In this document: positions 3,426 to 37,788 of the stretch, in pieces
How positions within the stretch are numbered: the first letter of the stretch is position 1
Layout: each line of letters begins with the position of its first letter
Assembly (NCBI GenBank): GCA_964480705.1
Contig: CAYZPC010000002.1
Span: 22,254-86,253, forward strand
From: an uncultured archaeon
GTDB lineage: Archaea > Iainarchaeota > Iainarchaeia > Iainarchaeales > VGJJ01
Direction of reading: 5' to 3'
DNA: 64,000 bases
The notes under the pieces: generated by a model
The model's input: the letters and a program-made list of their open reading frames with translations, nothing else
Told to the model about the DNA's origin: nothing
Database searches by the model: none
Made by a program: the position numbers and the translations under genes

Positions 3426-4163
3426 TTAGTTTCGTTCGCCGCCGCCGAGTCCGGCCGCTTCTTCTAATCGGTTGCGTCGGCCGCGGAACTCTCTGCGTTT
3501 GCGTTTTTGTCCTTGGTCTTCGGATTCTCCGTCTTTTAACGGATATTCGAATTCTTCCAGGGTTTTAGGAAATGCTTCGTCATTGGGAATGTTTCCCGTG
3601 ACTTTCAAATATTCTTTGGCGAGCAACCAATAGACTAATGCTAATGATTTTCGTCCCTTGTTGTTGATGGGGATGGCAATGTCGATGTTGGCCAACGAGT
3701 TGTTAGTAGAGGCGAGGGCCACGACCACGGCTTTGGCGCGTGCGGCTTCAGCGATGGCTTGGGCATCGGATTCAGGTTCGGTAATGATAACTACTTTCGG
3801 CTGGATGAATTCTTTTCCTTGAGGGTTGGTGAATGTTCCAGGAACGAATCGTCCGGTGAGTGAGAGTGCTCCAATGGCTTTGGCGAATTCTTCCGCGGGT
3901 GTTTTTCCGTACACTTTTCGGGAGACAATCACAATGGATTTGGGTGAATATTTGGACAAAAATTGGGCAACTTGTTTCACGCGTTCGTCAATGACTTGGA
4001 CGTCTAAGACTTTCAATCCGTCTTTGCGCTGCTTGTAAATGTATCGCGCCATGTCTCCTGATTTGAAGCGTGTTCCGATGTGCGCTCCCGTGGTGAGATA
4101 TTTTTCAATCACTGGATTGGTGGCAACCACTTGTTGTGTGTTTTCGTCGGTTTTTTCACTCAT
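3426..4163 (-). CDS. rps2: 30S ribosomal protein uS2, with ~30-aa charged C-terminal tail
   Basis: YLTTGAHIGTRF..., GLKVLDVQ, canonical uS2 core; terminal position of the alpha/L13 operon. Confidence 0.9.
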   Translation of the reverse strand: MSEKTDENTQQVVATNPVIEKYLTTGAHIGTRFKSGDMARYIYKQRKDGLKVLDVQVIDERVKQVAQFLSKYSPKSIVIVSRKVYGKTPAEEFAKAIGALSLTGRFVPGTFTNPQGKEFIQPKVVIITEPESDAQAIAEAARAKAVVVALASTNNSLANIDIAIPINNKGRKSLALVYWLLAKEYLKVTGNIPNDEAFPKTLEEFEYPLKDGESEDQGQKRKRREFRGRRNRLEEAAGLGGGERN

Positions 4164-4187
4164 ATTTTTCCCTCATTTTTTTCTTCG

Positions 4188-4382
4188 TTAAACGTTATAC
4201 TTTAGCACGTCGTCCATGACATCCACGTGTGCGAGGAGCATGCGTCGGCAGCAATAGCGCGTGATTCCCAATGTTTGGAAGATTTCGTCCATTTTTTCCC
4301 CTTTCTTTAATCGATTTTTCATCTCTTCGTAGTGGCCCGCAATGGGTTTTCCGCATGAAAAGCATCGGACAGGGATTATCAT
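4188..4382 (-). CDS. rpoN: DNA-directed RNA polymerase subunit N (Rpo10)
   Basis: MIIPVRCFSCGKPI...YCCRRM zinc-binding signature, 64 aa. Confidence 0.9.
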   Translation of the reverse strand: MIIPVRCFSCGKPIAGHYEEMKNRLKKGEKMDEIFQTLGITRYCCRRMLLAHVDVMDDVLKYNV

Positions 4383-4408
4383 GGTTGTTTTCCTCCGTTT
4401 TCTCCAGG

Positions 4409-4825
4409 TTATCGTTTCGAGTGCTGCTTTCGCTTACGCGCTTTGGGTCCCAAGGGTTTCTTTGGTTCCACGCGCCGGGGGTCATCCACCAACAGCATTC
4501 GATCGTATTCAATGTATCGTTTGCGCAATTTTTCGTCTCCGGTAAATTCGACGAGAGACTTGGCAATAGCCCCGCGCGCAGCGATGGCTTGTGACATGGC
4601 TCCGGATCCGGCAACATTCACAGAGATGTTGACTCCCTGCGCGGCGTCTCCCGCAAGGTGGATGGGTTCCATCATTAATGCTTTCAGTTGAGCGGGCTCA
4701 ATGAGGTTGATGTTGCGTGAGTTAATGCGCACCACTCCTTTTCCCACGCGAATCGTGGCTTGGGCGGTGGCCTCTTTCTTTTTGGCTTTGAATAGGGTTT
4801 GTTTCTTTCGTTTGGCCATAATCAT
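4409..4825 (-). CDS. rps9: 30S ribosomal protein uS9
   Basis: GKGVVRINSRNINLIEP...LVDDPRRVEPKKP...KRKQHSKR uS9 C-terminus. Confidence 0.9.
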   Translation of the reverse strand: MIMAKRKKQTLFKAKKKEATAQATIRVGKGVVRINSRNINLIEPAQLKALMMEPIHLAGDAAQGVNISVNVAGSGAMSQAIAARGAIAKSLVEFTGDEKLRKRYIEYDRMLLVDDPRRVEPKKPLGPKARKRKQHSKR

Positions 4826-5316
4826 TACTCCTTGATCTCATTGTATCCTAATGCGCGGGCGAGGGATAACACGGTAGTAACGCCCTTTGTTTTGGAGTTT
4901 TTGGCTTCTTCGAGTGCTTTGAAGGGTTTTCCTTCTAACACAGCGGGCTTTCCAATATACACTCGCAAGCGGCGCATGGCTTCTACTCCGCGTTCGCGGC
5001 GGTGGGGAACCATTCCTTCAATAATTTCTCGCACGATGCGATCGGGCATTCGTGAGAAGCGGGGTCCTGTTTCAGGGTTTCCGCGTGGGCGTAAATCTAA
5101 GCGTGTCTGCCAAAGTTTTTGGAGAACGACGGGGTTTCCGGTGAACACGGCTTTTTCGGCGTGGGCAATCACAACGGTTTCTCCGAGCAATAATTTTTCA
5201 GCCACGAGACTGGCCATGCGTCCAACGATTAAGTTGTTGGCGTCCACGTAAATGGTTTCGCGCGCAGTCATTTTAGCGGGAGTTGTTTTTTTGGAAGGTT
5301 TTTTGGTCGTTGACAT
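4825..5316 (-). CDS. rpl13: 50S ribosomal protein uL13 (start chosen at internal Met MSTTKK; long ORF extends to 5382)
   Basis: ETIYVDANNLIVGRMASLVAEKLL uL13 motif; MSTTKK ATG directly abuts eL18 stop at 5319. Confidence 0.85.
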   Translation of the reverse strand: MSTTKKPSKKTTPAKMTARETIYVDANNLIVGRMASLVAEKLLLGETVVIAHAEKAVFTGNPVVLQKLWQTRLDLRPRGNPETGPRFSRMPDRIVREIIEGMVPHRRERGVEAMRRLRVYIGKPAVLEGKPFKALEEAKNSKTKGVTTVLSLARALGYNEIKE

Positions 5317-5787: not shown

Positions 5788-5871
5788 TGCAGGAGACAGG
5801 ATTCGAACCTGTGAAGGCACTAAGCCACGGGATCTTAAGTCCCGCCCCTTTGACCGCTCGGGAACTCCTGC
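5788..5871 (-). tRNA. tRNA-Leu (anticodon UAA), class II long variable arm, no encoded CCA
   Basis: Minus-strand read GCAGGAG-TT-CCCGAGCGGTCAAAGGG-G-CGGGA-CTTAAGA-TCCCG-[TGGCTTAGTGCCTTC]-ACAGG-TTCGAAT-CCTGT-CTCCTGC-A; 7-bp acceptor, 5-bp anticodon stem, TAA anticodon, G37. Confidence 0.85.
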
Positions 5872-7162: not shown

Positions 7163-7816
7163 TCACTTTCCCTCCGCTTGAGCTTCGCGAACAGCTTCGG
7201 CGGCATCGGGGGTTTCAGGGGCTTCGTCGGTTTCTCCGGCGAGTTTTCCTTCAGTTCCTGTTGGCTCGCCTCGCATTTCGGCGAAGTCTTTGGCGATTTG
7301 TTTGGTGTCTTTCAACTGTTGTTGAGGTGTTTTCAGCACCATGGGCTTTCCATGATAGGCAATGCTCGCTTCTTCGTCTTTCGTGACAAAGTAAGAGGGC
7401 ACGGTGACCTTTGTTCCATTCACGGAGATGTGTCCGTGCGTGATGAATTGTCGCGATTGTTTAATCGTGTTCGCGAGATTCTTGCGCCACACAATCGTTT
7501 GCAATCGTCTTTCGAGGAATGATTCTAAACTCAATGAGAGCACGTCTTGGAGCGTGGGCTTTCCGCGCATGACTCCTAATCGTACGAGTGAGTCGAGCAA
7601 TTCTTTTTCTTTTGCCGCGCGGTTTTCCAATGGAATAGCTAACACTTGCTTGGCGTTGCGTCGCTTTCCTCGGACAATGGCTTCCATACTTCGGATTTCG
7701 CGCTTGTTACGCAAACCATATGTCTCGCGGAGCGTCTTTTCAGTCTCTAAGAGCTTCTTATCCCAAGGCTTCTTGGGGGTTCCATATTTTTTTCGTGCGA
7801 ATTTTGGGTCACCCAT
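7163..7816 (-). CDS. rps4: 30S ribosomal protein uS4, with acidic C-terminal tail
   Basis: MGDPKFARKKYGTPKKPWDK..., S4 RNA-binding domain FITHGHISVNG. Confidence 0.9.
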   Translation of the reverse strand: MGDPKFARKKYGTPKKPWDKKLLETEKTLRETYGLRNKREIRSMEAIVRGKRRNAKQVLAIPLENRAAKEKELLDSLVRLGVMRGKPTLQDVLSLSLESFLERRLQTIVWRKNLANTIKQSRQFITHGHISVNGTKVTVPSYFVTKDEEASIAYHGKPMVLKTPQQQLKDTKQIAKDFAEMRGEPTGTEGKLAGETDEAPETPDAAEAVREAQAEGK

Positions 7817-7828
7817 AATTGTTCACCT

Positions 7829-8320
7829 TTACTTTTTGGCCTCTGCTTTGGGGGCAGGCTTTGCTTCGACTTTCTTTTCGACGCCGACTGTCTTTCCTTT
7901 GCTTCGTCCGGCCGTGCGTGTGCGTTGTCCTCGTACCGTGAGTCCGAGCGCGTGGCGCAATCCTTTGTATGATTTGAGTTTCTTCATCGTCTGCAAATCA
8001 TTTCGAATAGCAAAATCGAGATCGTTCATCACCATGTGAGTGGGTTTTCCATCCATGGCTTTGCTTCGGTTAGCCGTCCACGTGGGGAGTCCGTGTTTTT
8101 GGGGCGCGAGCACAATGGCTTCGAGTTGCGCATCCATGTTTTCGGGTAATTGTCCTAAGGGCAAATCGTACGCGATGTGGTGTTCTTTTTGGAATTGGTA
8201 CGCAATCATGCGTGCCATTCGGATTCCCACGCCTTTGATTCCTGTCAAAGCGCGATAGATGGGAATGCTTCCATTCAAGTCTTTGTTGGCAATACGAACA
8301 ATGTATCTTACTTCAGCCAT
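7829..8320 (-). CDS. rps13: 30S ribosomal protein uS13
   Basis: IVRIANKDLNGS...ALTGIKGVGIRMA...GLRHALGLTVRGQRTRT. Confidence 0.9.
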   Translation of the reverse strand: MAEVRYIVRIANKDLNGSIPIYRALTGIKGVGIRMARMIAYQFQKEHHIAYDLPLGQLPENMDAQLEAIVLAPQKHGLPTWTANRSKAMDGKPTHMVMNDLDFAIRNDLQTMKKLKSYKGLRHALGLTVRGQRTRTAGRSKGKTVGVEKKVEAKPAPKAEAKK

Positions 8321-8322
8321 GT

Positions 8323-8556
8323 TTATTCACCCTTTCCTAATGCTTTTGTCAAGTCTGCGCGCGTGTAGCCGCTGGATAATGATACTGTTTCCGTTGTCGG
8401 GAGCAAGTGGTTCACGTTGCATTTTCCTTTTTTAGTGAAGATTCCTTCCACGATTGCAAATCCGTTTTTGGCGTTTTCGACGACGACTACTTTCTTTCCC
8501 GCGTCGCGGCCGGTTGTTTTGTAGCAAACTCTTCCTGTAGTAAAAATGGCTGCCAT
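8323..8556 (-). CDS. rpl14e: 50S ribosomal protein eL14 (L14e, KOW)
   Basis: GRVCYKTTGRDAGKKVVVV...KGKCNVNHLLPT similar to L14e. Confidence 0.8.
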   Translation of the reverse strand: MAAIFTTGRVCYKTTGRDAGKKVVVVENAKNGFAIVEGIFTKKGKCNVNHLLPTTETVSLSSGYTRADLTKALGKGE

Positions 8557-21757: not shown

Positions 21758-22563
21758 TATTGACCACCCTTCTTCGCGAGTGCGTGCACTGCTGATTCGG
21801 TCCAGATGGTTAAGCGTCCGGCCAATGCACCGGGAGCTAAGTGTTCGGCGTTCAAGCTTTGAACTTGCACCACTTCAACACCCGGCAAGTTTCGTCCGGC
21901 TTTGTAAACGGGCTTTGTTCCGTCGGTGACAATCAATAATGATTTTTTCATTCGGAATCGCATTCCGCGGTTTTTGTTTTTTCCCGCGCGCGTGCGTTTA
22001 CTGTCTTTGGCTTTTTCCACATCTTTCACAACGTGCAAAGCAGTTAATGCTTTGACAATATCTTTTGTCTTCGCTGTGTTTTCAAACGTGGCGTCCACAA
22101 TCAAAGGGAAGACTTTGTCATCAAATGTGTGTCCGCGTGCTTTGACAATTTTGGCGTTCACGGATGCAGCAATCGCAGAGGCAATGGCTTTCTTTCGTTC
22201 TTTCACATTGATGCGTTCTTCGGTAACCGTTTCAACTTTCGGACCGTGCGCGCGAGGTCCGCCTACGGCTTGAGGGACGGAAGCAACTTTTCCGTATAAG
22301 ATTCCGCGCTTGTTTCGCAAACGGGGCAAGCGGGCGTGTCCAACGTTAATTGTTTTGTGCATCGTGGGCTTTCCGCGGACACCGATGTATTCCGCAGTGT
22401 TCATGCGTCCGGCACCGCGTTTGTGTCCAAAAGGTTGGACGCGCGTGGATTGCACGGCAAGCACGGCTCGCTTGATGAGTGTAGGATCATAATGCGTAGT
22501 GAAAATGGTCGGGAGTTGAATGTCTTTGACTTTGACACCATCTCGAGAGAAAACGGCAGGCAT
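21757..22563 (-). CDS. rpl4: 50S ribosomal protein uL4 (start at internal Met; TAATG overlap with uL3 stop)
   Basis: MPAVFSRDGVKV...; uL4/L1e family; long ORF to 22641 overlaps uL3 C-terminus. Confidence 0.85.
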   Translation of the reverse strand: MPAVFSRDGVKVKDIQLPTIFTTHYDPTLIKRAVLAVQSTRVQPFGHKRGAGRMNTAEYIGVRGKPTMHKTINVGHARLPRLRNKRGILYGKVASVPQAVGGPRAHGPKVETVTEERINVKERKKAIASAIAASVNAKIVKARGHTFDDKVFPLIVDATFENTAKTKDIVKALTALHVVKDVEKAKDSKRTRAGKNKNRGMRFRMKKSLLIVTDGTKPVYKAGRNLPGVEVVQVQSLNAEHLAPGALAGRLTIWTESAVHALAKKGGQ

Positions 22564-23600
22564 TACAATGCACCTCCCGTCGTTGAAACATATTTCACGG
22601 GACCAATCTTGTAGTGGTTTGAAGGGTCGGGTCGAATACATTCGCGCATTCCCACGAGTCGCTTTACTGGACCCGGAATGCTTCCCACGAGGAGAATGAA
22701 TTCGTTGTTGACGTTTCCATAATGTTCGAATCCTGATTTAGGATTGAGTTTGGTGGCGTCGTTGCTAATCTTGAGAATGTGTTTGTTGAATTCGGTTCGA
22801 TTGTGATATCCTAATTGTCCGGGTCGTGCAACCGAGAACTGAACCGTTCGCGGGTTGAGCGGGGAAATACTTCCAACCGTTCGGATGTATTTTGCTTTAG
22901 GTCGGAATGTCTTAATTCCAAATCGTGCAATCACACCACCCATTCCAAATCCGCGCGTCACGGCTTTGACATCAATGGATTGGCTGTCTTTGAAAACTTC
23001 AGACACTGCAATGGTTTGTCCGAATTTTTGTTTGGCAAATGCGAGTTGTTCTTCAACCGTTCCGGATAATGCGACTTCTGCAATCTCGGCTTTTTTGGAA
23101 CCGAAAGAGGTTTTTTCCGGGTGCGTGTGTACGAGCAAGCGGATTTGGTCAATCTTTCCTTTCATTTCTTCTAATTTTTCAAATGTCAATGCGTGCTTGT
23201 CAACTTTAGAATGAGAAGCGTTCTTCTTGTGAGTAGATTTTGTTTTGAAATTTTTTAATTTTTTGAGAACAGGCTTTTCGAGTTTGTCTACGCTCAATTC
23301 ACCCATCACGTGCAAACCATATGCGTCGTGATTGTATGCGCGCACACCAAATACTTGTACAGGGGGGCATTCGATAACGGTGGTGGGGATTTGCATATCT
23401 TGCTTATCCATTTTTCCGCCGGCGTGCAACGATTGGGCGACTAAGTGGACCATTCCCACTTTGTATCCAAAAAAATTCAAGGGTTTCGAGGGGCCTTTCA
23501 GTTCGGGGAATGAGTTGAAGGAAGGCGTCTGCTTGTAAGCTCGCTTCCGGGGTCTGTGCATCAGACTTCCCTTACGGGGATTGTGTCGCGCGCGAACCAT
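22563..23600 (-). CDS. rpl3: 50S ribosomal protein uL3 (ATG at 23600; ORF track extends to a non-ATG codon at 23636)
   Basis: MVRARHNPRKGSLMHRPRKRA N-terminus typical of archaeal uL3; GAGGA 8 nt upstream of 23600. Confidence 0.85.
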   Translation of the reverse strand: MVRARHNPRKGSLMHRPRKRAYKQTPSFNSFPELKGPSKPLNFFGYKVGMVHLVAQSLHAGGKMDKQDMQIPTTVIECPPVQVFGVRAYNHDAYGLHVMGELSVDKLEKPVLKKLKNFKTKSTHKKNASHSKVDKHALTFEKLEEMKGKIDQIRLLVHTHPEKTSFGSKKAEIAEVALSGTVEEQLAFAKQKFGQTIAVSEVFKDSQSIDVKAVTRGFGMGGVIARFGIKTFRPKAKYIRTVGSISPLNPRTVQFSVARPGQLGYHNRTEFNKHILKISNDATKLNPKSGFEHYGNVNNEFILLVGSIPGPVKRLVGMRECIRPDPSNHYKIGPVKYVSTTGGAL

Positions 23601-23765: not shown

Positions 23766-23773
23766 TATATAAA
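23766..23773 (-). promoter_or_regulatory. candidate archaeal TATA box (TTTATATA on minus strand) upstream of the uL3...uS2 gene run
   Basis: Sequence only; ~165 nt upstream of uL3 ATG, implying a long leader; no BRE verified. Confidence 0.2.
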
Positions 23774-23833: not shown

Positions 23834-25807
23834 CTATTTTTGGCTTTTGGGGAGCCAAATTTCATCCATTTCATCAATGGGTGACTTTTCAGACCCCCTC
23901 ATTATGTAGTTTTCAGGGGCGTCATTAGATGCGTGTTGGGAAACGTACCAGAGGCCGATAACAGCCAATAACACGAGGATGCCCAACCAAAATCCCCCGC
24001 CCTGAACAACAAATCCAGTAATGGCGTTGGCAGCTGCAACAATCGGAATCTCATTCGTGGGTGCCGCACTCCCTTGGGAGGAAGGTGCAACGTTTTCCAA
24101 TTGAATCGTGTGCGTGTTGGTGTAACCGGCACTGATTACCTGCACGATTGCAATGCTTTTTCCCGCAAACATTTCAGCAGGAATGTACACGAGTGGCGTG
24201 TCTAATCCCGTGAGTTGAATTGTTTTTGAAAATGTTTGCGTTCCCGGTTTTGCAATCACATTCAGTGTGACTTCCTGCGTGAATGTGGATTTATTTTCTA
24301 ATTGCAATGCGAATTCGCGCGCACCATACAAGTTGAGCAGTGCGGGCGCGTTCACCAATTGCACCGGCGCATCATCCAATCCTGAAAACAACACGACACT
24401 TGTTTGGTCGGGTACCGTGCATCCTTGCAAATTTGTTTTGATAGTAATAATTTGTTCCGCATTGGTGTTTGAAACAAAAAGTGTTTGCAATTTCACCGTG
24501 TCGGCGGGAATAATTATTTTGGATGGAGAAATAGTTCCGCTCGTGCTTGAAATATACAGTGTTGCATCATATGCGAGAGGGTTGTTGAACAGCACATCAA
24601 TGCTTTTTTCTCCGCGCAGCACCGTAATGGGTTTCAATCCCGCATAAAATGAATTGCAGGATGCATTTTCCGTTCCAATGAAGCGGTATTCAAATCGTTT
24701 GGCATTCACGAGGCAGCTTCCTCCGTCCGTGAAGTGTCCTTTTACCGTGAGGAATGCATTTGCATCGAATGTTCCTGCATTGGAATATCCAATCGCGTCA
24801 AATGCAATTTCTTCCGAGGATTGTGATTCAACTTTCACAGGATTTGAAACCGGCTCGAATGCTACTTGGTAATTCTTATCTGCAAACGTGTATTCGTCCA
24901 CGTAAAAATGCTGGTCGGCATTATTGATGAGTGAGAACGTGTGTGAAGTTGTTTCGCCGGCACGCACGGAGACAAATGGAATGTTCACATTCAATTCAGT
25001 GCACACACCTGTTTGCACACCCGTGTCTTCTACCGTCACATCAAATGTTTCAGAGATGTCAGAGAATGAACAATCATATCCATTTTCAAATTCTCCGCGA
25101 ATTTCTACAAACACAGGATTTGTTTCATCGTCCGACACGCCTCGCGCGTCAATTTCAATCGTGTATGAATTCGTTCGGTTATTTTGAAGATTTTTTTCAA
25201 AATCAGAATCGGAAAAAGGAGGTTCCGCAGCGGCAGTGAATGAATCGCCGTCATCAAATACATCAAATCCTTGCAGAGTAAAATCATTGGAGGAATTGTT
25301 TGTCACGCGAACCGTGTGCAAAATAGTATCGTTTTCATTCAACGTCACATCATCGGCTTCAATTTGAATGAGTGAGCAAACATCGTCGCCGTCTTGAATA
25401 GTTACGTTCACCGTGAATGTTAAATCGGAAAATTCACAATCATCATTGTCTTCAAATTCTCCGCGGAGTTGAATGCGAAACGTTTCTTGTCGGTCGCCGT
25501 TTACATCGACGGTGTCGTAGCGCAGACGCAAGTCTTCGGATTCATCTTCGTTGATTTGATCCGGAAAATCATCCACGCTGATATCCAAAAAGGGACTTGA
25601 CTCTTGGACGCGCACGTCGTCTAATTCAAAGTCATCATTTCCATTGTTTTCAATGTCAAATGTAATCAAGCGGTTGTCGCGGTCTTCTGCAAACGTAACC
25701 GAAAGAGGAGAAATATCAATATCATTACACGAACTCGCAGCATAGCTCAATGAGAGCATACTGCCGAACATCAGGAGCAAAATTCCAAAGCGAAGGGCGT
25801 GAAGCAT
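23834..25807 (-). CDS. acidic repeat-containing cell-surface protein (signal peptide, three ~120-aa Cys-pair repeats, C-terminal TM anchor + cytoplasmic tail)
   Basis: N-terminus MLHALRFGILLLMFGSMLSLSYA; recurring (L/I)RGEFE(D/N)..DC.FSD motif; C-terminal GGGFWLGILVLLAVIGLWYV then 40-aa tail; very D/E/N rich. Confidence 0.6.
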   Translation of the reverse strand: MLHALRFGILLLMFGSMLSLSYAASSCNDIDISPLSVTFAEDRDNRLITFDIENNGNDDFELDDVRVQESSPFLDISVDDFPDQINEDESEDLRLRYDTVDVNGDRQETFRIQLRGEFEDNDDCEFSDLTFTVNVTIQDGDDVCSLIQIEADDVTLNENDTILHTVRVTNNSSNDFTLQGFDVFDDGDSFTAAAEPPFSDSDFEKNLQNNRTNSYTIEIDARGVSDDETNPVFVEIRGEFENGYDCSFSDISETFDVTVEDTGVQTGVCTELNVNIPFVSVRAGETTSHTFSLINNADQHFYVDEYTFADKNYQVAFEPVSNPVKVESQSSEEIAFDAIGYSNAGTFDANAFLTVKGHFTDGGSCLVNAKRFEYRFIGTENASCNSFYAGLKPITVLRGEKSIDVLFNNPLAYDATLYISSTSGTISPSKIIIPADTVKLQTLFVSNTNAEQIITIKTNLQGCTVPDQTSVVLFSGLDDAPVQLVNAPALLNLYGAREFALQLENKSTFTQEVTLNVIAKPGTQTFSKTIQLTGLDTPLVYIPAEMFAGKSIAIVQVISAGYTNTHTIQLENVAPSSQGSAAPTNEIPIVAAANAITGFVVQGGGFWLGILVLLAVIGLWYVSQHASNDAPENYIMRGSEKSPIDEMDEIWLPKSQK

Positions 25808-25917
25808 GTATATAATATCACCCAGAACCATTAAATAAGAATACTTTTCCCGTGAATGAGTGAAGAATTAAACGAGGGAATAACGGCCATTAACGAAGTG
25901 TTTGAACGAACCCGCCC

Positions 25918-27801
25918 TTACTGCGGATGACCATCTTCTTCCATCATTTGCTTCAACCGACGCAAAATCTCTTGTTTTTCGTCATTTGTCGGTGTTTTGG
26001 AAGTTTGTGGGGCGGTGGTTAGTGCTCCTTCCAATTGGGAGGATTGTCGCTGAAGGGTGTTTTTGAGCTCGCTGGGGATTCCCACATCATTGTCTTTTTC
26101 TTCTTGGGCTTTACGGTGTTCTTTTTCTTTCTGGGATAAATAGTCCAAATCCGAGGCAGATAGTCCTTCCACATCCTCGAAGGGCAAACTCTCCAGCGCT
26201 TCTTCTTCACTAATTTCCTGCTCCATCGCCGATTCCATTCCACTTGAATGCGCGGGCGCCGAGGGGGCGGTGTAGGCATCAGCGTCTTCGACTTTCAATT
26301 CTTCATCAATAGACGCGCGTATTTTTTTCTCAGGTAAAACAGGTCGAGCCGCAGTATCTATGGTTGCAATTGAATTTTCGCGCGAGTGAGATGAATCATC
26401 AGTTGAGTGTGTTCCAAATGGTTGTTTCCACGGCATGGCATCACTCACGGAAGATGAAGGCGATTGTGCTTGGGGAGTGGTGCGTGCCACCCAGGGCGGA
26501 ACATAGGGTGCTGATTTCGCAGCAGGAGATGGTGCGGACACTCGTGTAGGAATGGTTGCGGGTGAGGGAGTTGAAATGATTGGATTTTTTTCTGCAGTTG
26601 GCAATGGTGTGTTTACGCGCGGCGCGGGAGTAAATTCTTTTTTGGTTTCGATTGGCTCGCGCGCAGTATTCATGGGCAACGGAGCAGTAGGGTAAATGGA
26701 TTTTTTTTCGTGAATGACCGCAGGCACGGGCTGAGTAAGCGCAGGCACATTTGTTTTTTCGCGTGCGATAGTTGCAATGTCAACTCGCGCAATGGAGGGA
26801 GGTGTTTGAGTAGTTTTCACGGGCGAAATGTCAGATGTTTTTTCACTTAATGGAGAAACGGTGCTCGCGGCTCGTGGAATAGGTGCGATGGGAGCAATGG
26901 GTTCTATGCTCGCGCGCGCGTTGGCAACAGCAGGGTTGCGTGCAGCCGCGGCATAAGGTGATGGAGCAGTTGATTTAATCGGGCTGGGCGAGACAGCAGG
27001 TGCAGTGGGAGGAGTTTGTTTTTCTCCAAATATTTTTTTCCAAAAAGATTGTTTGGGTGCAGATGATTTTGCTGCGAGCGTTGGCGTAGGAGATGGTTGC
27101 GCAGGCAGTCGTTGTGCGGGCGCAGGTGTTTGAGTGAGCATGCGTGCGGTTGGAATCGTTCGTTCTCCTGGAGGTAGAATGGGAGTCACGCGCGGCGCAG
27201 GGGAAGATGGGGGTGCGGCCTGTCGTGGAGAGGAAATGGGTGGAGCGAGTGGTTTGTTGGATGGAAGGGGTGTTGATGAAACGGGCGGCGCGCGCGGGGG
27301 AGCAGCGGCTTGTGCAGCAGTGGGAGATGGTTTGGGCAGGGTGGCAAGTCCGCGCTGAATGTAGGGCGGGTAAGGCATGTTGGAATAATAGTGTGGAACG
27401 CGCGGCGCGGGAGGCGCAGGTGATGAAGTTGTTGGTGTGGATGCGGGAGTGCGATTGGGTGCTTGTGGCAAGGACGGTGAAGCAAATGCTGATTTGGATG
27501 TTGTCGGATATACATTTTTGAGCGGCGCAGTGGGCGAGGGGCGAGAAGTGGTTGCGAGGTGAGTGTCCATTATTTCATCCAGTTGCTGCCGCATCGCTGC
27601 CTGTGCTTGCGTGCTGGCAACGGTAGGTTGAGTGCTTTGTAATGGAACTTTTTCTACGCGCGGTTTTCCAAACACGGCTAGAGAAATTTTTTTAGCAAAT
27701 CCTGGAGTGAAATCGTTTCGGGGCAATTCGCCGAGGCGTTGTTTCTCTCTTCTTTTTTGGAGAAACTCATTGATTTCATCCACTTCTTCTTGGGCGGGCA
27801 T
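25918..27801 (-). CDS. proline/alanine/serine/threonine-rich low-complexity protein (627 aa), charged N-terminal 50 aa, acidic C-terminal ~120 aa; no signal peptide
   Basis: 1.9-kb uninterrupted frame; PAP/APP/SPT repeats throughout; all competing ORFs in the region are short. Confidence 0.55.
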   Translation of the reverse strand: MPAQEEVDEINEFLQKRREKQRLGELPRNDFTPGFAKKISLAVFGKPRVEKVPLQSTQPTVASTQAQAAMRQQLDEIMDTHLATTSRPSPTAPLKNVYPTTSKSAFASPSLPQAPNRTPASTPTTSSPAPPAPRVPHYYSNMPYPPYIQRGLATLPKPSPTAAQAAAPPRAPPVSSTPLPSNKPLAPPISSPRQAAPPSSPAPRVTPILPPGERTIPTARMLTQTPAPAQRLPAQPSPTPTLAAKSSAPKQSFWKKIFGEKQTPPTAPAVSPSPIKSTAPSPYAAAARNPAVANARASIEPIAPIAPIPRAASTVSPLSEKTSDISPVKTTQTPPSIARVDIATIAREKTNVPALTQPVPAVIHEKKSIYPTAPLPMNTAREPIETKKEFTPAPRVNTPLPTAEKNPIISTPSPATIPTRVSAPSPAAKSAPYVPPWVARTTPQAQSPSSSVSDAMPWKQPFGTHSTDDSSHSRENSIATIDTAARPVLPEKKIRASIDEELKVEDADAYTAPSAPAHSSGMESAMEQEISEEEALESLPFEDVEGLSASDLDYLSQKEKEHRKAQEEKDNDVGIPSELKNTLQRQSSQLEGALTTAPQTSKTPTNDEKQEILRRLKQMMEEDGHPQ

Positions 27802-27890
27802 GCGCCAAAAGACCGAGTTTGAGAATAAAAAAGAACTGTTTAAACGTGAAAAAAAGTGTAGGAAAAAGGTTTCCCTTTTTCCTTAGGTAT

Positions 27891-28691
27891 TTACTGTTTT
27901 CGTCCGCGCCAGGCAAATATGCCAAACACAAGGAGCACGAGCAGTCCTAACCAGGGTAGGTTGGCGCCGGTGAATAGTCCTGTGAGTGATGCAGTGGTTG
28001 CCGCGGGGGCGGGAGCAAATACTTCTTCTGGAACACTTCTTCCATCGGCCTGTCCAATGATGAGGGGATTAGGACCCGTTTCGGTTAGTTCGATGGGAAT
28101 AGGATTAGTCACGAGTGTCCCTGCGCTTGGATTGCTCGGCTTCACCGGGCCCACGACCCATAATGGGTTGAATGAAAAGAGCGGGGTGAATTCTTCTTCC
28201 GGAGAATTTTCTTCGGGTTGAATTGGGGGCTCGGGCTGCGGCTGGCAGAATACCGTATCGGCTGCTAAGCATGGATCAATGGGGCATCCGATAGTGTCAC
28301 TGACAGTACATGGTGCAGGAGATGGAGGCACGGGTCCGACGGGCACACACCCGCCAGGAACAGTGCACGGGTCATTATTTCCGGTCGAAACTATTTTGGG
28401 AGTGCGGTGTTTTCGTCCCGACTCTGCCGGAACTATTTCTACCGCGTCAACAGCAGAATCATTTATCGAATTAATTTTACTTTCATTTTGTTTTTCATCT
28501 ACGGTTTCATTTTCATTTATTTTTTCAGTTGAGTTTGTTGTTTCACTCGCGTCAGAAGAATTAGTTTCCGAAGGTGTTGCTTCGTTTTCTGCTGACGAGG
28601 AAGTAGCGTCGCTGGTCACTTCTTGCGCGTGAACAGTGGAGAATAGTGTCGCCATCACAAGTAATAGAATTACAAATGTTATTTGTCTCAT
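27891..28691 (-). CDS. secreted Ser/Thr/Pro-rich protein with Cys-Pro cluster and C-terminal TM anchor ending in RGRKQ
   Basis: Start at MRQITFVILLLVMATLFSTVHA (GGAGGT 7 nt upstream); C-terminus LPWLGLLVLLVFGIFAWRGRKQ resembles archaeosortase-type sorting signals. Confidence 0.55.
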   Translation of the reverse strand: MRQITFVILLLVMATLFSTVHAQEVTSDATSSSAENEATPSETNSSDASETTNSTEKINENETVDEKQNESKINSINDSAVDAVEIVPAESGRKHRTPKIVSTGNNDPCTVPGGCVPVGPVPPSPAPCTVSDTIGCPIDPCLAADTVFCQPQPEPPIQPEENSPEEEFTPLFSFNPLWVVGPVKPSNPSAGTLVTNPIPIELTETGPNPLIIGQADGRSVPEEVFAPAPAATTASLTGLFTGANLPWLGLLVLLVFGIFAWRGRKQ

Positions 28692-28778
28692 GCAATTACC
28701 TCCAGTAATATACCGAGTGTGCGTCAATACCTGTTTTAATGAATCGGAAAAATGGTCGTATTAAGTGCGTTAACTCGC

Positions 28779-29723
28779 TTACCATTTTCCTCCGGCTCCA
28801 CCGCCGCCACTCATTCCTCCGCCGAAGCCTCCGCCTCCTCCTCCAAATCCGCCCGTTCCTCCAAACCCACCTCTGCCAAATCCTCCGAATCCAGTTCCAG
28901 ATGTTGCGGCGGCAGCCAAACTGGTTACGAGAGGATGTCCTGTGATGACAAAATAGAGAAAAATAAGCGCCACGGCGGTGAGACCGTAGAATGTTCCAAA
29001 TAGAAAAAGAGTAACAAAACCAATGAAGCCCGTCATCCATATTCCCATGAAGAAAAGCAAAAAGGCGTTAGGGATAATGAGCGCACGCGGCAGGGATTTT
29101 TTTTGAATTGTTTGATAGATGCGAAACAGCGCGGCGAAAAATAAAATAATCACTGCAAAAATAAGTGTGAAACCCAATCCGAATAATTCACTATTTTCAA
29201 ACGGGTCTGTTTCCTCATACTTTGACACCACGCTCGGATCATTTCGAATGTATGATTCCGCTTCACTCACTACCGCATTAATTCCATTCCCGTATTCTCC
29301 TGCACGAAAATTCGGAACCAAAATCTCTCGGCCCATTCGGCCTAACACAATGTCGGGCAACGTTCCTTCCAAACCATACCCTGTTTGAAAAAAATATTCG
29401 CGGTCATTTAGTGAAACGAGAATCAGCAGTCCATTATCCACGTCCGCTTGTCCAATTTTCCATGTGTCAAATACGCGTCCGGCGTAGAGAGAAACATCTT
29501 CCCCCTCCAGTGAGGGAATGGTAAGCACGGCAATCTCCACACTCGTATCTGTTTCTAATTGCTGCAAGCGTTGCTCGAGCGCGCTTTCGTATTCTCGCAA
29601 TATTCCCGCGTCATCGCGCACAAAACCATCCGGAGATGGAACATCGAGCGCGTGCACGCTGGATAATGTAAAAAGTGAAATGAAAATAAAAAAAAGAATA
29701 AGGGGAATGTTTTTCACAAACAT
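28779..29723 (-). CDS. TPM-domain (TLP18.3/Psb32/MOLO-1; YgcG-like) membrane protein with Gly-rich C-terminal tail
   Basis: Signal/TM, DDAGIL...LEQRL..L......IAVLT..SL TPM motif, 4 TM helices, tail GFGGFGRGGFGGTGGFGGGGGGFGGG. Confidence 0.75.
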   Translation of the reverse strand: MFVKNIPLILFFIFISLFTLSSVHALDVPSPDGFVRDDAGILREYESALEQRLQQLETDTSVEIAVLTIPSLEGEDVSLYAGRVFDTWKIGQADVDNGLLILVSLNDREYFFQTGYGLEGTLPDIVLGRMGREILVPNFRAGEYGNGINAVVSEAESYIRNDPSVVSKYEETDPFENSELFGLGFTLIFAVIILFFAALFRIYQTIQKKSLPRALIIPNAFLLFFMGIWMTGFIGFVTLFLFGTFYGLTAVALIFLYFVITGHPLVTSLAAAATSGTGFGGFGRGGFGGTGGFGGGGGGFGGGMSGGGGAGGKW

Positions 29724-29729
29724 TCCTCC

Positions 29730-30323
29730 TTACGAAAAGTCGCTTGGAACCGTTGGAACGGTGCTCGCTCCTTCATCTGATTTGAAGAAGGGTTTGGGCG
29801 CATTTCCACCTACAAAAATACTATTGGGAATGAGAGAAATGTAGATGTTGTATTCTCCCACCGTCTCGTTGTAGCGTGTGCGTTCCGTGCTGATGCGATT
29901 TTCCGTTCCTTCTAATTGCACCATCAAATCTTGAAACGCGGCAGTGGCTTTCAACTCGGGATAATTTTCCGTAATCACGAGCAATTTTGAAAGTGTTGAC
30001 TCAAATTGATTCGCCGTGTTGATTCGGTCATTCACATTTGTTTGTGTTTGCCACTGCGAGCGCAATGCTGTTAATTCAGTAAGCGTATCTTGCTCAAATC
30101 CTGCAACGCCTTTTACTGTGTTCACTAAATTTGGAATTAAATCGAAGCGTCGTTGATATTGTACTTCTACATTTGCCCATGCCCCGTTCACTTGTTGTTC
30201 GCGGATGGTTTCTCCATTGTATATTCCTACAACCCACATTCCAAGAATGAGTACGATAACAATTCCCGCGGCCAATGGTGCCCAGGATGGTAGTTGATTA
30301 TTTTTTTCAGCCATGATTAACAC
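29730..30323 (-). CDS. lemA: LemA-family membrane protein
   Basis: N-terminal TM then ...QYQRRFDLIPNLVNTVKGVAGFEQDTL...LRSQW LemA signature; 6-bp gap to TPM gene. Confidence 0.8.
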   Translation of the reverse strand: MLIMAEKNNQLPSWAPLAAGIVIVLILGMWVVGIYNGETIREQQVNGAWANVEVQYQRRFDLIPNLVNTVKGVAGFEQDTLTELTALRSQWQTQTNVNDRINTANQFESTLSKLLVITENYPELKATAAFQDLMVQLEGTENRISTERTRYNETVGEYNIYISLIPNSIFVGGNAPKPFFKSDEGASTVPTVPSDFS

Positions 30324-30437
30324 CCCTTACAGTAGCACTGTGTTTTCAGTGTTAAAAAATGGCGGGGTAAAATGCGATAAAAAGAGTGAAAAAAAAGATA
30401 AGGATGGGCTTTCGCCCATTCCTTGTTTTATTTTAAT

Positions 30438-30809
30438 TTAATGACCGGAGGCCATATTCCACACGGCTTTGATTCCCACAATTACTGCGGCGGGAGCCAT
30501 GAGGCTGGCGATGTTGGCGAAGATGCTTCCGAGCATGCTTCCAACCGTCGGGATGAGAGCCCAATTAACGCTTCCTGCTACGAGCAATGCGACCACTGCC
30601 ACTAAGAAGGATGTAATTTCTTTGTCGCTAATATTGAGCAATCCGATGATGATTCCCAAAATGACGAAGACTAATGGCAAGGTACTGGCAAATCCGCCAA
30701 AGACACCTGAACCCAAGAGTCCGATAATGATGGCCAACACCACTCCGATGATGAAAGCCCAAGAACCGTATTTTTGATCGATCATGGTTGAGACACCTCC
30801 TCGTGTCAA
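30438..30809 (-). CDS. small polytopic membrane protein (123 aa, ~4 TM)
   Basis: ORF track; hydrophobic, Gly/Ile/Leu-rich. Confidence 0.45.
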   Translation of the reverse strand: MTRGGVSTMIDQKYGSWAFIIGVVLAIIIGLLGSGVFGGFASTLPLVFVILGIIIGLLNISDKEITSFLVAVVALLVAGSVNWALIPTVGSMLGSIFANIASLMAPAAVIVGIKAVWNMASGH

Positions 30810-30974
30810 ACTAAACTAACCCTGCAAGTGATGGTTTAAAAGAAAAACGTCAAACGCACAACTATTGTTCGGCGATGGGCGTAATTATGTGGTTAGTTAA
30901 TGATGCAAAAAAATGTAAATATTCGAAGAAGACGATAAAAAAAATAGTTAAAAAAAATTAGAATAAAATCGACT

Positions 30975-31286
30975 TCACTTGTCTTTGAAATCGATTTTGA
31001 TTTGAACATCTTCGGGAATGTCAATTCGCATTACTCGGCGTAACGTACGATCGTCTGATTCGACATCGATCATTCGCTTGTGCACGCGCATCTGCCATCG
31101 CTCATATGTTTCTGTTCCACCGCCACAAGGTGACTTGCGCGTGGGGATGAGCAATTTTTTCGTGGGCAAGGGGATAACACCCGAGTGTTTTACTCCGGTT
31201 TTATCCGCAACGTCCACAATTTTTCCGCAGATGTCGGACAAGGTGTCGTAGCTCGGGCTTGTTAATGTGATTCGGGCTTTTTGCAT
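30975..31286 (-). CDS. rps10: 30S ribosomal protein uS10
   Basis: KARITLTSPSYDTLSDICGKIVDVADKTGVKHSGVIPLPTK... Confidence 0.9.
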   Translation of the reverse strand: MQKARITLTSPSYDTLSDICGKIVDVADKTGVKHSGVIPLPTKKLLIPTRKSPCGGGTETYERWQMRVHKRMIDVESDDRTLRRVMRIDIPEDVQIKIDFKDK

Positions 31287-32592: not shown

Positions 32593-32740
32593 TTTTTATT
32601 CCTCCAGAACCTTTTTGTTGTTTGCAACCAACACTAAAGGGGAATTGCCACCCTTTCCGGCGCGGTATAAAACAAAAACCCCGGGCAACCATTTAAATAG
32701 GTAATGGGCGCAAAACGCGCAAAAGACCTTCCAAAGAAGG

Positions 32741-34237
32741 TTAGGGAGCCAATTTAGTAAATGTCACGGGCACCCGTACGAGGTTTCGGCGCAAGCCCCA
32801 CCCGCCCGGGTTGTGATTGTCTTGGTTCTGCATCCAGTACAAATACACCGTGTCATTGGCCGTTTCAAAATTTCGGCTCGTGGAATCGTGGTCGATGATA
32901 GATGGATATGCTTCTTGGTCGATGCTCAATGCTTGCTGGGCGAGTGTGGGGTTGTCGCACGGCGGCCATCCTAAAACGGTTTCACGCAACAAGTGGGGTT
33001 TGCTCCACGTGATCAAATCACTAGACAGAATATACCAGAATCCGCACGTCAAAACCCCTGCGTCATTGTTCAACGTAGCTGCGCCCACGATCATGTACCG
33101 TTGCAAATACGTGTTGTACGTCAAGCTTCCATTCAGCGAACCATTTTTGGGCAGCACCACGGGAGTACAGAATAAATCCTGCGGATTTGCCGGTTCATTC
33201 GGATACGGATTAGTAAGTGGAATCGAAAAACTTTCTCCATTCCAAAATTTCCAGGAGGAAGGATCGCTCAAATTATTCGTGCGCATCACACACGCCACAT
33301 CATCTCCTCCTTTTGGATTAGACAAGCGCCGCACCATCGCGTAATAGAATCCATCTTCTCGTTTCACAATGGTGGAGGGTTCCATGTACCCGTACGGCGC
33401 GGGTCGGTCAAATTTTTGCAAGCGCTGATTGTAATTTCCCGAGTTCGCATCCCACTGCAGAGGGAGGATGGCCACCAAATGGTTGGGGCTGGTAGGTTGA
33501 GTAAACGTGTGTCCGCCGTCCGTTGAGCGCGCGTAGGAAATAAAATTATACCAGCATCGGTTGCTCGGATCGGTAACACCAGGCAGGCACAATGGAGAGT
33601 AGGGGTCGTGATACTCGTTGTGCACGAGCGCATGAATGGTTTTTCCATCTTCCGTGTATGTGGGACCGACCCACTCTTGATGGTCAAATGTTTCAACCGG
33701 CCATTTATCTCCGCTGCGCAGCACGGGTGTGCAGTCTCGGTGCAAATCATTGAAAGTAGTGCCGTACATCCAATAATTATCCGGCGCGTTTCCTGATGCG
33801 AGAACTAATTCTCCGAGATGATTGCGAAAGGGATGCGCCACCATGTCGGGCAAATCCATTTGAGCGCACGCATCTTCTTGATAATCAAAAACCGTTTCTT
33901 CGCTACCGAGGGTGAGCGTGAGTGGAACATCCGCAGCTTCTTCTGGAGTAATCACACGGCAGTCTGCGGCGCATAATATTTCATTTTCAATTCCTTCGCA
34001 CACACCATCTCCGCACACGGGAACGGGTGGAGAAACACACGTTTGAATAGTAGCAGGTTTGTTCACGGTTGTTCCGCAGGCATTGGCATCCGAGCATGCG
34101 CGTGTTTGAGAATTATTTTCGCAGGTTGACCAATCGTTACACGACCAATTTTCCGTACATGATTCCGGCGGCGTCACGCATCCGGAAATAAAAATGAGTA
34201 AAATGAATGAAAAAAATAGAATGGGGCGCGGGAACAT
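32741..34237 (-). CDS. secreted Cys-rich protein with an Asp-box (BNR-like SxDxGxTF) motif, possibly a beta-propeller glycosidase-like fold; probable lipoprotein
   Basis: Start at MFPRPILFFSFILLIFISGC (upstream 70 codons of the track ORF overlap EF-2); 12 Cys in first 80 mature residues; YARSTDGGHTF; many Trp. Confidence 0.5.
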   Translation of the reverse strand: MFPRPILFFSFILLIFISGCVTPPESCTENWSCNDWSTCENNSQTRACSDANACGTTVNKPATIQTCVSPPVPVCGDGVCEGIENEILCAADCRVITPEEAADVPLTLTLGSEETVFDYQEDACAQMDLPDMVAHPFRNHLGELVLASGNAPDNYWMYGTTFNDLHRDCTPVLRSGDKWPVETFDHQEWVGPTYTEDGKTIHALVHNEYHDPYSPLCLPGVTDPSNRCWYNFISYARSTDGGHTFTQPTSPNHLVAILPLQWDANSGNYNQRLQKFDRPAPYGYMEPSTIVKREDGFYYAMVRRLSNPKGGDDVACVMRTNNLSDPSSWKFWNGESFSIPLTNPYPNEPANPQDLFCTPVVLPKNGSLNGSLTYNTYLQRYMIVGAATLNNDAGVLTCGFWYILSSDLITWSKPHLLRETVLGWPPCDNPTLAQQALSIDQEAYPSIIDHDSTSRNFETANDTVYLYWMQNQDNHNPGGWGLRRNLVRVPVTFTKLAP

Positions 34238-37734: not shown

Positions 37735-37788
37735 TTTTGTTCACCAGATTAGAGTAATCGTCTCTCCGAAGTCTTTTAAATGCTTCAA

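Follow-up and report, generated by a model that had tools for sequence, protein, structure and literature searches.

In archaea, the gene for ribosomal protein uS10 closes the str/L30e cluster and the gene for uL3 opens the S10-spc cluster (PMC10833476), and uS10 has been found always apart from uL3-uL4-uL23, in Asgard and non-Asgard archaea alike (Tirumalai et al., 2023; PMC10833476). In the DPANN genome GW2011_AR10, the layout has been given as "...EF1a-S10 - 5HPs - L3-L4-L23-L2...", where HPs are hypothetical proteins (PMC10833476). Here we consider a stretch of 64,000 nucleotides (nt) from an uncultured archaeon (contig CAYZPC010000002.1), referred to below in its whole length as the window, in which six minus-strand open reading frames (ORFs) at 23834-30809 form a block between uS10 and uL3. 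An earlier note on this DNA had described the block as secreted and membrane protein genes inserted into a core operon and co-transcribed with it. We consider it likely that an ancestral spacer divides two separate transcription units here, and that the block is what is specific to this lineage in that spacer. The upstream unit would be a str/L30e-type cluster ending with EF-1alpha-uS10, and the downstream unit would be an S10-spc-type operon beginning with uL3.

The six genes have the same orientation as the 45-kb array of transcription and translation genes in which they lie. In the order of transcription, the array is comprised of rpoA'/A'', a gene of the L30e/L7Ae family, S12, S7, EF-2, a gene of 498 amino acids (aa), EF-1alpha, and uS10. 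These are followed by the six block genes and then by uL3, L4, L23, L2, S19, L22 and onward; further along the window, the series from L3 to secY gives way to a cluster containing tRNA-Leu (5788-5871). The length of the block between uS10 and uL3 is 7.4 kb. The genes of the gap and its two boundaries, with domain matches given by their expectation values (E), are:

30975..31286, minus strand: uS10, last gene of the str/L30e-type cluster and upstream boundary of the gap (PF00338, E=2.7e-26)
30438..30785, minus strand: g1, 115 aa, integral membrane protein with ∼4 predicted transmembrane (TM) segments (Kyte-Doolittle)
29730..30314, minus strand: LemA, 194 aa, with an N-terminal TM anchor at residues 14-32 (PF04011, E=2.2e-48)
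28779..29723, minus strand: TPM, 314 aa, comprising a signal peptide, the TPM domain, TM helices, and a Gly-rich tail (PF04536, E=1.1e-36)
27891..28691, minus strand: g4, 266 aa, with a signal peptide, an S/T/P/E-rich ectodomain, a C-terminal TM helix, and an RGRKQ end
25918..27801, minus strand: g5, 627 aa, 16% Pro, predicted to be cytoplasmic and disordered
23834..25807, minus strand: g6, 657 aa, predicted type-I membrane protein (AlphaFold model, repeats, and a family hidden Markov model, HMM)
22563..23600, minus strand: uL3, first gene of the S10-spc-type operon and downstream boundary of the gap (PF00297, E=2.5e-71)

Gene models were refined by hydropathy analysis (Kyte-Doolittle) and by comparison with relatives. 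In particular, the ATG at 25831, chosen in the earlier note as the start of g6, is AAG in three relatives. Otherwise, the gene inventory and the product descriptions given there were correct, and the presence of six co-oriented genes between uS10 and uL3 was borne out both by the ORFs and by independent assemblies. Of the six, only LemA and TPM have Pfam matches above the cut-off. Five products are predicted to be membrane or secreted proteins, the exception being g5; the description of the whole block as secreted or membrane thus holds for the five that carry secretion or membrane signals and fails for g5, which has neither.

Looking up the exact uS10 protein, we found the same gene order on independent assemblies (L001, L003, L005, L006, and L009). 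The order S10-g1-LemA-TPM-...-L3 was present in independent runs and pipelines (Logan SRR31228764, SRR34411021, SRR34411017, and SRR31228765; ENA ERZ27258493). This rules out an assembly artefact. As to taxonomy, the archaeon belongs to the Iainarchaeota/Diapherotrites in the DPANN group: the uL3 homologues are annotated as Candidatus Diapherotrites/Iainarchaeum, and an alignment-based scan of species-representative genomes yielded 80 loci, nearly all of them in Iainarchaeota metagenome-assembled genomes (MAGs). One of the relatives is a complete chromosome of 1.05 Mb, in agreement with the initial guess of a small-genome archaeon.

By tblastn, uS10 was located upstream of uL3 and on its strand in 36 related loci, these being the loci with uS10 inside the fetched flank upstream of uL3. 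The gap between the two genes varied from 3.8 to 9.9 kb, with a median of 6.8 kb, and in none of the 36 did uS10 directly abut uL3. A contiguous S10 operon of the bacterial type (uS10-uL3-uL4-uL23-uL2) is not what we see here, either by adjacency (0/36) or by a signal-free junction, as T-runs follow uS10 and the TTTATATA element precedes uL3. The order of the str/L30e cluster, ...L30e-S12-S7-EF2-EF1a-S10, is present in the window. This architecture is ordinary for archaea and has already been noted in passing for AR10. The block does not interrupt a core operon, nor was it inserted into one, as had been claimed, since the gap is found in 36/36 related loci and uS10 is apart from uL3 across archaea (PMC10833476).

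The content of the gap recurs as well. A search with the family HMM showed that, in 59 of 64 loci, a g6-family member lies upstream of uL3, on its strand and at a distance of at most 5 kb, being its immediate neighbour in 41. The order g1, g4-like, g5, g6 before uL3 is found in the 11 closest relative genomes (uL3 65-97% identical; two fetched relative loci reach only the g5-g6 end). Both observations contradict the notion of an accessory island. The earlier note had expected an ancestral, non-accessory block to show itself by an identical block at the same position in related genomes and by missing secretion signals. The first half of this expectation agrees with the data, as the block is ancestral at its position; the second does not, as secretion signals are present.

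In two relatives, L021 and L022, the same genes are rearranged and g1 is inverted. In distant members (uL3 ∼47-49% identical), the gap is occupied first by either RpiB or a fusion of ADP-forming acetyl-CoA synthetase with GNAT, then by archease and RtcB, and last by a ∼750-aa protein that has no Pfam domain but is a homologue of g6 (E=4e-36 in L091 and 5e-5 in L092). The archease and RtcB genes (a tRNA ligase and its activator) are found in the gap at 3203-5112 of L091, 5519-7402 of L092, and 2495-5182 of L022; L021 and L022 have these two interleaved with g4-like, g5, and g6 genes. The lineage of the window has lost archease and RtcB from this position.

The spacers of the block are 86-233 nt long, save for 6 nt between LemA and TPM, compared with −1 to 15 nt from uL3 through uS3. 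They carry the following candidate signals, in the order of transcription:

30907..30957, minus strand: oligo-T tracts T8, T8, and T7, at most 70 nt past the uS10 stop, similar to archaeal terminators
30835..30840, minus strand: TATA-like TTTAAA (TATAAA in relatives), ∼55 nt upstream of the g1 start
30389..30421, minus strand: GC-rich hairpin GGAATGGGC-GAAA-GCCCATCC with T8, terminator-like, 3' of g1
27849..27883, minus strand: 10-bp hairpin with T7, terminator-like, 3' of g4
27839-27844, minus strand: TTTAAA, 43 nt ahead of the g5 start
25808..25868, minus strand: putative g6 promoter block TTCACTnATTCACnGGAAAAGT...CTATTTAA...ATTATATAC-ATG, from the alignment of five relatives
23766..23773, minus strand: TTTATATA, matching the archaeal TATA-box consensus, ∼170 nt ahead of the uL3 start codon
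23601..23765, minus strand: long 5' leader of the uL3 operon, in which a long-range helix, GAGGCAAA / TTTTGCCTC, may be conserved

Across the phylum, T-runs of at least 6 nt within 150 nt past the uS10 stop occur in 23 of 41 distinct loci, compared with 21 of 343 coding control windows (6%). On the coding strand of the 45-kb array, 10 of 18 such runs are intergenic, though intergenic DNA comprises only 9%, and seven of these ten fall in the spacers of the block. The T(T/A)TAAA element of g1 is kept in six relatives though the flanking spacer has diverged; it is followed by the invariant Shine-Dalgarno sequence GAGGAGGTGT, which supports the g1 start. Upstream of g6, ∼60 nt are nearly invariant in five relatives with diverged flanks. 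The TATA-like TTATTTAA is 24-31 nt ahead of the g6 ATG, and this distance suggests that the g6 mRNA may be leaderless or near-leaderless.

The element before uL3 is similarly constrained. TTTATATA is invariant in six aligned relatives, the surrounding spacer having diverged, and is exact in 11/11 distinct relatives with uL3 at least 70% identical. Counting any of three canonical TATA octamers, we found one at positions −260..−120 of uL3 in 41 of 81 loci (51%), compared with 0.2% of coding and 2.1% of upstream control windows. For the leader, RNAalifold applied to six relatives predicted 27 pairs, nine of them with compensatory changes. The helix GAGGCAAA/TTTTGCCTC shows compensatory changes from A-U to G-C and encloses a stem with an insert of variable length. 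No Rfam family matched the leader, which could be an autoregulatory ribosomal protein leader.

The proposed co-transcription with ribosomal genes is hard to reconcile with the T-runs past uS10, the hairpin and T-run signals past g1 and g4, TTTATATA before uL3, and the wide spacers. Taken together, the predicted signals argue for several independent units. The block would then be a row of four to six small transcription units with their own signals, and not one co-transcribed insert. Transcription of the upstream cluster would stop at the T-run terminator past uS10; a promoter would drive g1 up to the hairpin/T8 terminator; lemA and TPM would be expressed as a coupled pair; g4 would be closed by the hairpin/T7 terminator, and g5 would follow the g4 unit; the conserved promoter of the leaderless type would drive g6; and TTTATATA with a leader of ∼140 nt would precede uL3 and the remaining operon. 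We infer these transcript boundaries from conserved motifs and their spacing. In terms of function, the block would be a cell-envelope neighbourhood with g6 as its conserved anchor.

Several observations do not favour so orderly a picture. A scan for sigma-70 promoters and intrinsic terminators, used only for locating hairpins, gave region-wide totals that were not above those in shuffled sequence. There is no T-run or clear TATA element in the 87 nt between TPM and g4, and the g5-g6 junction has neither, other than the g6 promoter block; because these two junctions are poor in signals, the number of units is uncertain. In addition, archaeal oligo-T terminators can leak, and hence some transcription may run on past uS10 into the block or past g6 into uL3.

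One alternative, unlikely but deserving attention, is that the g4-g5 core (∼28650-26250) is a hotspot of diversifying selection, caused by interaction with a host, phages, or predators, and that the remaining block is conserved housekeeping envelope machinery. We compared the window at the nucleotide level with the closely related strain L002, whose uS10 protein is identical. The identity is 95% for EF-1alpha, 96% for uS10, 96% for g1, and 94% for uL3; it is 89% for LemA, 83% for TPM, and 89% for g6. Against the values of 94-96%, g4 has only 55% and g5 only 61% (36-67% in its middle and 78-86% at its ends). Moreover, in relatives the length of g4 varies from 215 to 426 aa, with only the signal peptide and the C-terminal anchor kept, and the g4 protein is predicted to be exposed and mucin-like, with five N-X-S/T sequons near the N-terminus. 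Still, both regions are of low complexity and disordered, and slippage with relaxed constraint gives fast drift without positive selection; besides, g5 has no export signal. A role in host interaction would be possible for g4 and g6 only.

The mature part of g4 contains six Cys, and GGAGG is found 7 nt before its start. Its codon adaptation index (CAI; reference: ribosomal protein and EF genes of the window, 0.73±0.04) is 0.52, the lowest in the window. At the C-terminus (27891-27970, minus strand), the positional homologues in L013-L024 share a conserved A-N-x-P-[LW]-[LI]-G motif, followed by the TM helix and a basic end; in the window, the motif reads ANLPWLG. Pfam searches at lax thresholds returned only noise for g4. 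These features are consistent with a fast-evolving, mucin-like anchored surface protein.

In g5, hydropathy analysis revealed no signal peptide and no TM helix. The termini of this protein are conserved, namely ∼80 aa at the N-terminus and an acidic helical C-terminus of ∼100 aa (EISEEEALExLPFEDVEGLS...EILRRLKxMMEE), and flank a hypervariable, disordered middle rich in Pro, Ala, Ser, and Thr. We considered that g5 could be a gene-calling artefact and rejected this, as an intact ORF of 384-675 aa with conserved termini is present in 13/13 relative loci examined, although the middle has undergone many indels. In public gene calls, g5 is represented only by fragments of 70-182 aa, corresponding to the C-terminal domain, and the profile of this domain retrieved only 14 clusters among 5.8 billion proteins. 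The annotation of L002 splits g5 into genes of 179 and 241 aa plus two antisense ORFs, and the plus-strand GC skew across g5 is 0.22-0.36; it seems that the Pro-rich, C-skewed sequence misleads gene finders. The termini gave only noise in Pfam at lax thresholds, and NCBIfam had nothing for g5.

It is improbable that the units are separate and yet subject to substantial read-through from the strong promoter of the str cluster, so that the block, and especially g1, partly tracks ribosomal expression. Such read-through would fit the shared orientation with no antisense genes in the block, the g1 start only 189 nt past uS10, the g1 CAI of 0.70, and the g1-after-S10 order kept in 11 relative genomes. 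However, three consecutive runs of T7-T8 stand past uS10, g1 is retained even where it is inverted (L021 and L022), and it has a conserved TATA element and Shine-Dalgarno sequence of its own.

As for a recently acquired accessory island of surface genes, residing in a contiguous S10 operon and co-transcribed with it so as to couple envelope remodelling to growth rate, we consider it very improbable. The six genes are indeed co-oriented with the ribosomal genes between uS10 and uL3, the CAI of g1 is similar to that of ribosomal proteins, and leakage of archaeal T-run terminators is general knowledge. But the uS10-uL3 adjacency that such an island would have broken is absent from the 36 related loci and from the archaea surveyed in PMC10833476; g6 is kept in place phylum-wide, and the order of g1, g4-like, g5, and g6 recurs in the closest genomes; and the terminator-like tracts past uS10 and the promoters of g1, g6, and uL3 are conserved. 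CAI is also heterogeneous, being 0.70 for g1, 0.67 for g6, 0.62 for LemA, 0.60 for g5, 0.58 for TPM, and 0.52 for g4.

Nor are there marks of a mobile element. Around the block, we found no flanking direct or inverted repeats beyond matches of chance length, the only real repeat being that of the domains inside g6, with a spacing of 366 nt. The block contains no tRNA and no Rfam RNA or riboswitch (Rfam gathering thresholds and ARAGORN, which found only the tRNA-Leu at 5788-5871), and no recombinase or integrase domain in Pfam. Its GC content, 0.42-0.52, is within the range of the window and shows no discontinuity. The block thus does not look like a genomic island, LemA-TPM alone being patchy among relatives, and we rejected the mobile-element idea, given the absence of flanking repeats, a tRNA gene, a recombinase domain, and a GC break. 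We also rejected an anti-phage defence function, as PADLOC gave no match for the six proteins or for the 498-aa neighbour.

Finally, a mis-assembly or a chimeric contig joining two ribosomal clusters has practically no chance of being the explanation, for although doubts have been raised in the literature about how ribosomal clusters are assembled in MAGs (PMC10833476), the order was identical in different sequencing runs and pipelines, and the S10...L3 linkage is seen in dozens of independent genomes, complete chromosomes included.

Under the preferred reading, that of an ancestral spacer with lineage-specific content, the most conserved tenant is g6. This protein is acidic (102 D+E vs. 36 K+R). 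Its domains 1-3 are tandem repeats of ∼120 aa (30% identity between D1 and D2, E=4e-12; E=1e-5 between D2 and D3), which are acidic, bracketed by Cys, and end in (R/K)G-x-F-x-(D/N)G-x-x-C. The AlphaFold model, based on 33 homologues and having a predicted local distance difference test score (pLDDT) of 83, comprises a signal helix, five beta-sandwich Ig-like domains, a disordered stalk, a TM helix, and a tail. The predicted cytoplasmic tail is 32 aa long (residues 634-665 of the 665-aa model, ...SPIDEMDEIWLPKSQK), is acidic, and has a ...DEIWLP end. The C-terminal TM helix is present in 50 of 51 g6-family members adjoining uL3. With only 136 representatives in 1.84 billion clusters, this is a small family and, as far as sequence matches go, one restricted to the Iainarchaeota phylum.

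In close relatives, the end of the tail (23834-23930, minus strand) has an acidic stretch followed by (E/P)xW(M/L)xP in 12/12 loci. Many distant members of the family have a Trp 8-15 residues past the TM helix, and others stop right there in a basic cluster.

By its modelled architecture, that is, a signal peptide, a beta-rich multidomain ectodomain, and an anchor, g6 corresponds to the functional class of surface-layer (S-layer) proteins. It is plausible but unproven that g6 is a major surface-layer (S-layer-like) component, and it is the best candidate for such a component. A number of facts speak against such a role. No S_layer_N/C or TIGR01564/TIGR01567 match, of the kind shown by the S-layer protein of Micrarchaeota, was found for g6 in Pfam and NCBIfam, and NCBIfam returned no match to g6 of any other kind. 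N-glycosylation sequons are not enriched, seven being observed and 7.2 expected. Foldseek retrieved generic tandem-Ig arrays, with hydin/CFAP ASH-domain arrays at the top and the S-layer protein of H. volcanii (7ptp_A) lower (E=4.6e-11), so that the likeness to S-layer proteins is a generic one for tandem Ig arrays. The CAI of g6, 0.67, is intermediate between ordinary genes (0.59-0.66) and ribosomal proteins (0.73). The S-layer protein of Micrarchaeota was considered as a model for g6 and rejected, as it belongs to a different domain family.

Among the sampled genomes, g5 is confined to the clade with acidic-PWMxP g6 tails (12/12 loci), where it always precedes g6. This purely correlative link hints that g5 may bind the tail of g6. 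Like the abundance of g6 at the surface, any contact between the two proteins is inferred. Taken jointly, the propositions that g6 is the major S-layer-type protein of Iainarchaeota, that g5 is a scaffold on its tail, and that the linkage to uL3 is due to a shared high-expression context are tentative and, as a set, rather unlikely. If they were true, g6 would be the long-sought surface protein of Iainarchaeota, its gene residing directly upstream of the promoter of the uL3 operon since the phylum diversified; g5, as a cytoplasmic Pro-rich scaffold on the acidic-PWMxP tail, would link the surface to the cytoplasm; and the uL3 linkage would reflect selection for a high-expression chromosomal context rather than co-transcription.

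The two genes with Pfam domains form a pair. LemA matches PF04011 with 164.3 bits (cut-off 26.2) over profile positions 1-147 of 149 and belongs to this family; its match to MamQ in NCBIfam is below the cut-off. TPM matches PF04536 with 126 bits (cut-off 22.1) over positions 1-124 of 125 and so contains this domain; it is not a Psb32 equivalog, scoring 26 bits with a cut-off of 160. TPM starts 6 nt past the lemA stop, the spacer being GGAGGA, and from this spacing lemA and TPM are probably translationally coupled. LemA has the single N-terminal TM segment and the pairing with TPM. A metagenome scan with the LemA alignment yielded 80 loci with 42-55% identity from gut and environmental samples. 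Among the unrelated metagenomic LemA loci with enough flank, 53 of 61 have an ORF with a TPM domain, which in most cases directly adjoins lemA on the same strand. In the relatives of our archaeon, LemA-TPM is present only in some and lies between g6 and uL3 in L021 and L022. Being patchy and relocated together, the two genes behave like a mobile module, one that is membrane-associated and widespread. The functions reported for TPM domains differ and include those of a phosphatase, an ATPase, and an adapter (PMC13456599). In the literature on LemA together with TPM, we found only an envelope-stress transcriptome with both genes induced, and no established mechanism.

The remaining gene, g1, is a conserved orphan encoding a small multi-pass membrane protein. 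It is 68-77% identical in relatives with uL3 65-82% identical. Its family includes 78 clusters, none of which has a Pfam domain covering g1. The AlphaFold model (pLDDT 86) is all-helical and has no Foldseek match in PDB; NCBIfam contains nothing for g1, and Pfam gave only noise at lax thresholds.

Outside the block, one more gene of the array deserves mention:

32741-34237, minus strand: 498-aa gene between EF-2 and EF-1alpha, encoding a protein with 19 Cys and a lipobox-like signal peptide (...FISGC)

It begins 37 nt past the EF-2 stop and has no match in Pfam (only noise at lax thresholds), NCBIfam, or PADLOC. Most relatives lack it, the distance between EF2 and EF1a there being ∼130-220 nt, and L002 has in its place a 248-aa methyltransferase-like gene. 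Hence, the 498-aa gene is a more genuine lineage-specific insertion into a ribosomal cluster than the block that had been flagged. The 148-nt spacer upstream of EF-1alpha (32593-32740, minus strand) carries TTTAAA and TTTATA elements and a strong GGAGG Shine-Dalgarno sequence, which suggests that EF-1alpha-uS10 may form a transcription unit of its own downstream of the inserted 498-aa gene. In L002, a PemK/MazE toxin-antitoxin pair is found between rpoA'' and L30e, and two ORFs of 191 and 139 aa are found between S7 and EF-2; the variable cargo of its junctions is at L002 coordinates 1710-2272, 3957-5092, and 7810-8556. As the cargo of L002 at these other junctions is different, the junctions between sub-operons are hotspots of variable genes.

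These results correct a reading derived from bacteria: the archaeal uS10/uL3 junction marks the boundary of two operons, and the genes residing there interrupt nothing. This is relevant for automated scans that flag insertions in ribosomal operons. In addition, g6 is an easily located candidate for the cell-surface layer of uncultivated Iainarchaeota; g1 and g5 are its orphan partners, and the hypervariable anchored g4 may be of use in studies of host and virus interactions. For the annotation of transcripts in the phylum, the conserved motifs of promoters, leader, and terminators can serve as a guide.

Comparison with known systems shows both likeness and difference in each case. The overall plan of g6 is that of csg, the membrane-anchored S-layer glycoprotein of Haloferax volcanii (7PTP): past the signal peptide, an acidic ectodomain of consecutive Ig-like domains is joined by a flexible Ser-, Ala-, and Pro-rich stalk to a C-terminal TM helix. 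Unlike csg, g6 is outside the S-layer sequence families and has no PGF-CTERM signal, ending instead with a 32-aa tail. The best Pfam match of g6 domain 3 is the HYDIN/CFA65/VesB-like ASH/PapD-like family PF22544 (E=7e-5), but at 23.4 bits it falls short of the gathering cut-off (25.5), and the Cys-bracketed acidic repeat is a distinct family. The tripartite C-terminus of g4, that is, a motif, a TM helix, and a basic cluster, resembles that of archaeosortase/exosortase substrates of the PGF-CTERM type, although the motif is not PGF, PEF, or VPXXXP, and no sorting-signal model of NCBIfam matches it. LemA and TPM, 6 nt apart, have the typical architecture and the same-strand adjacency of the bacterial and archaeal LemA - TPM/YgcG-like module, whereas their placement between ribosomal operons is lineage-specific and variable.

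The locus as a whole is best compared with AR10, as the window has the same cluster order with hypothetical genes separating uS10 from uL3. The differences are six gap genes in the window vs. five hypothetical proteins in AR10, the extra gene between EF-2 and EF-1alpha, and the absence of nusA between L30e and S12. In the window, the L30e/L7Ae-family gene and S12 are separated only by a 54-nt spacer (37735-37788), at the place of nusA in the canonical cluster and in AR10. Compared with the earlier survey, where the hypothetical proteins were only counted (PMC10833476), we have characterized the content of the gap, mapped its promoter and terminator motifs, and found the gap in every related locus showing both genes. 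The novelty that remains is the uL3-linked g6 family across the phylum, together with its orphan neighbours.

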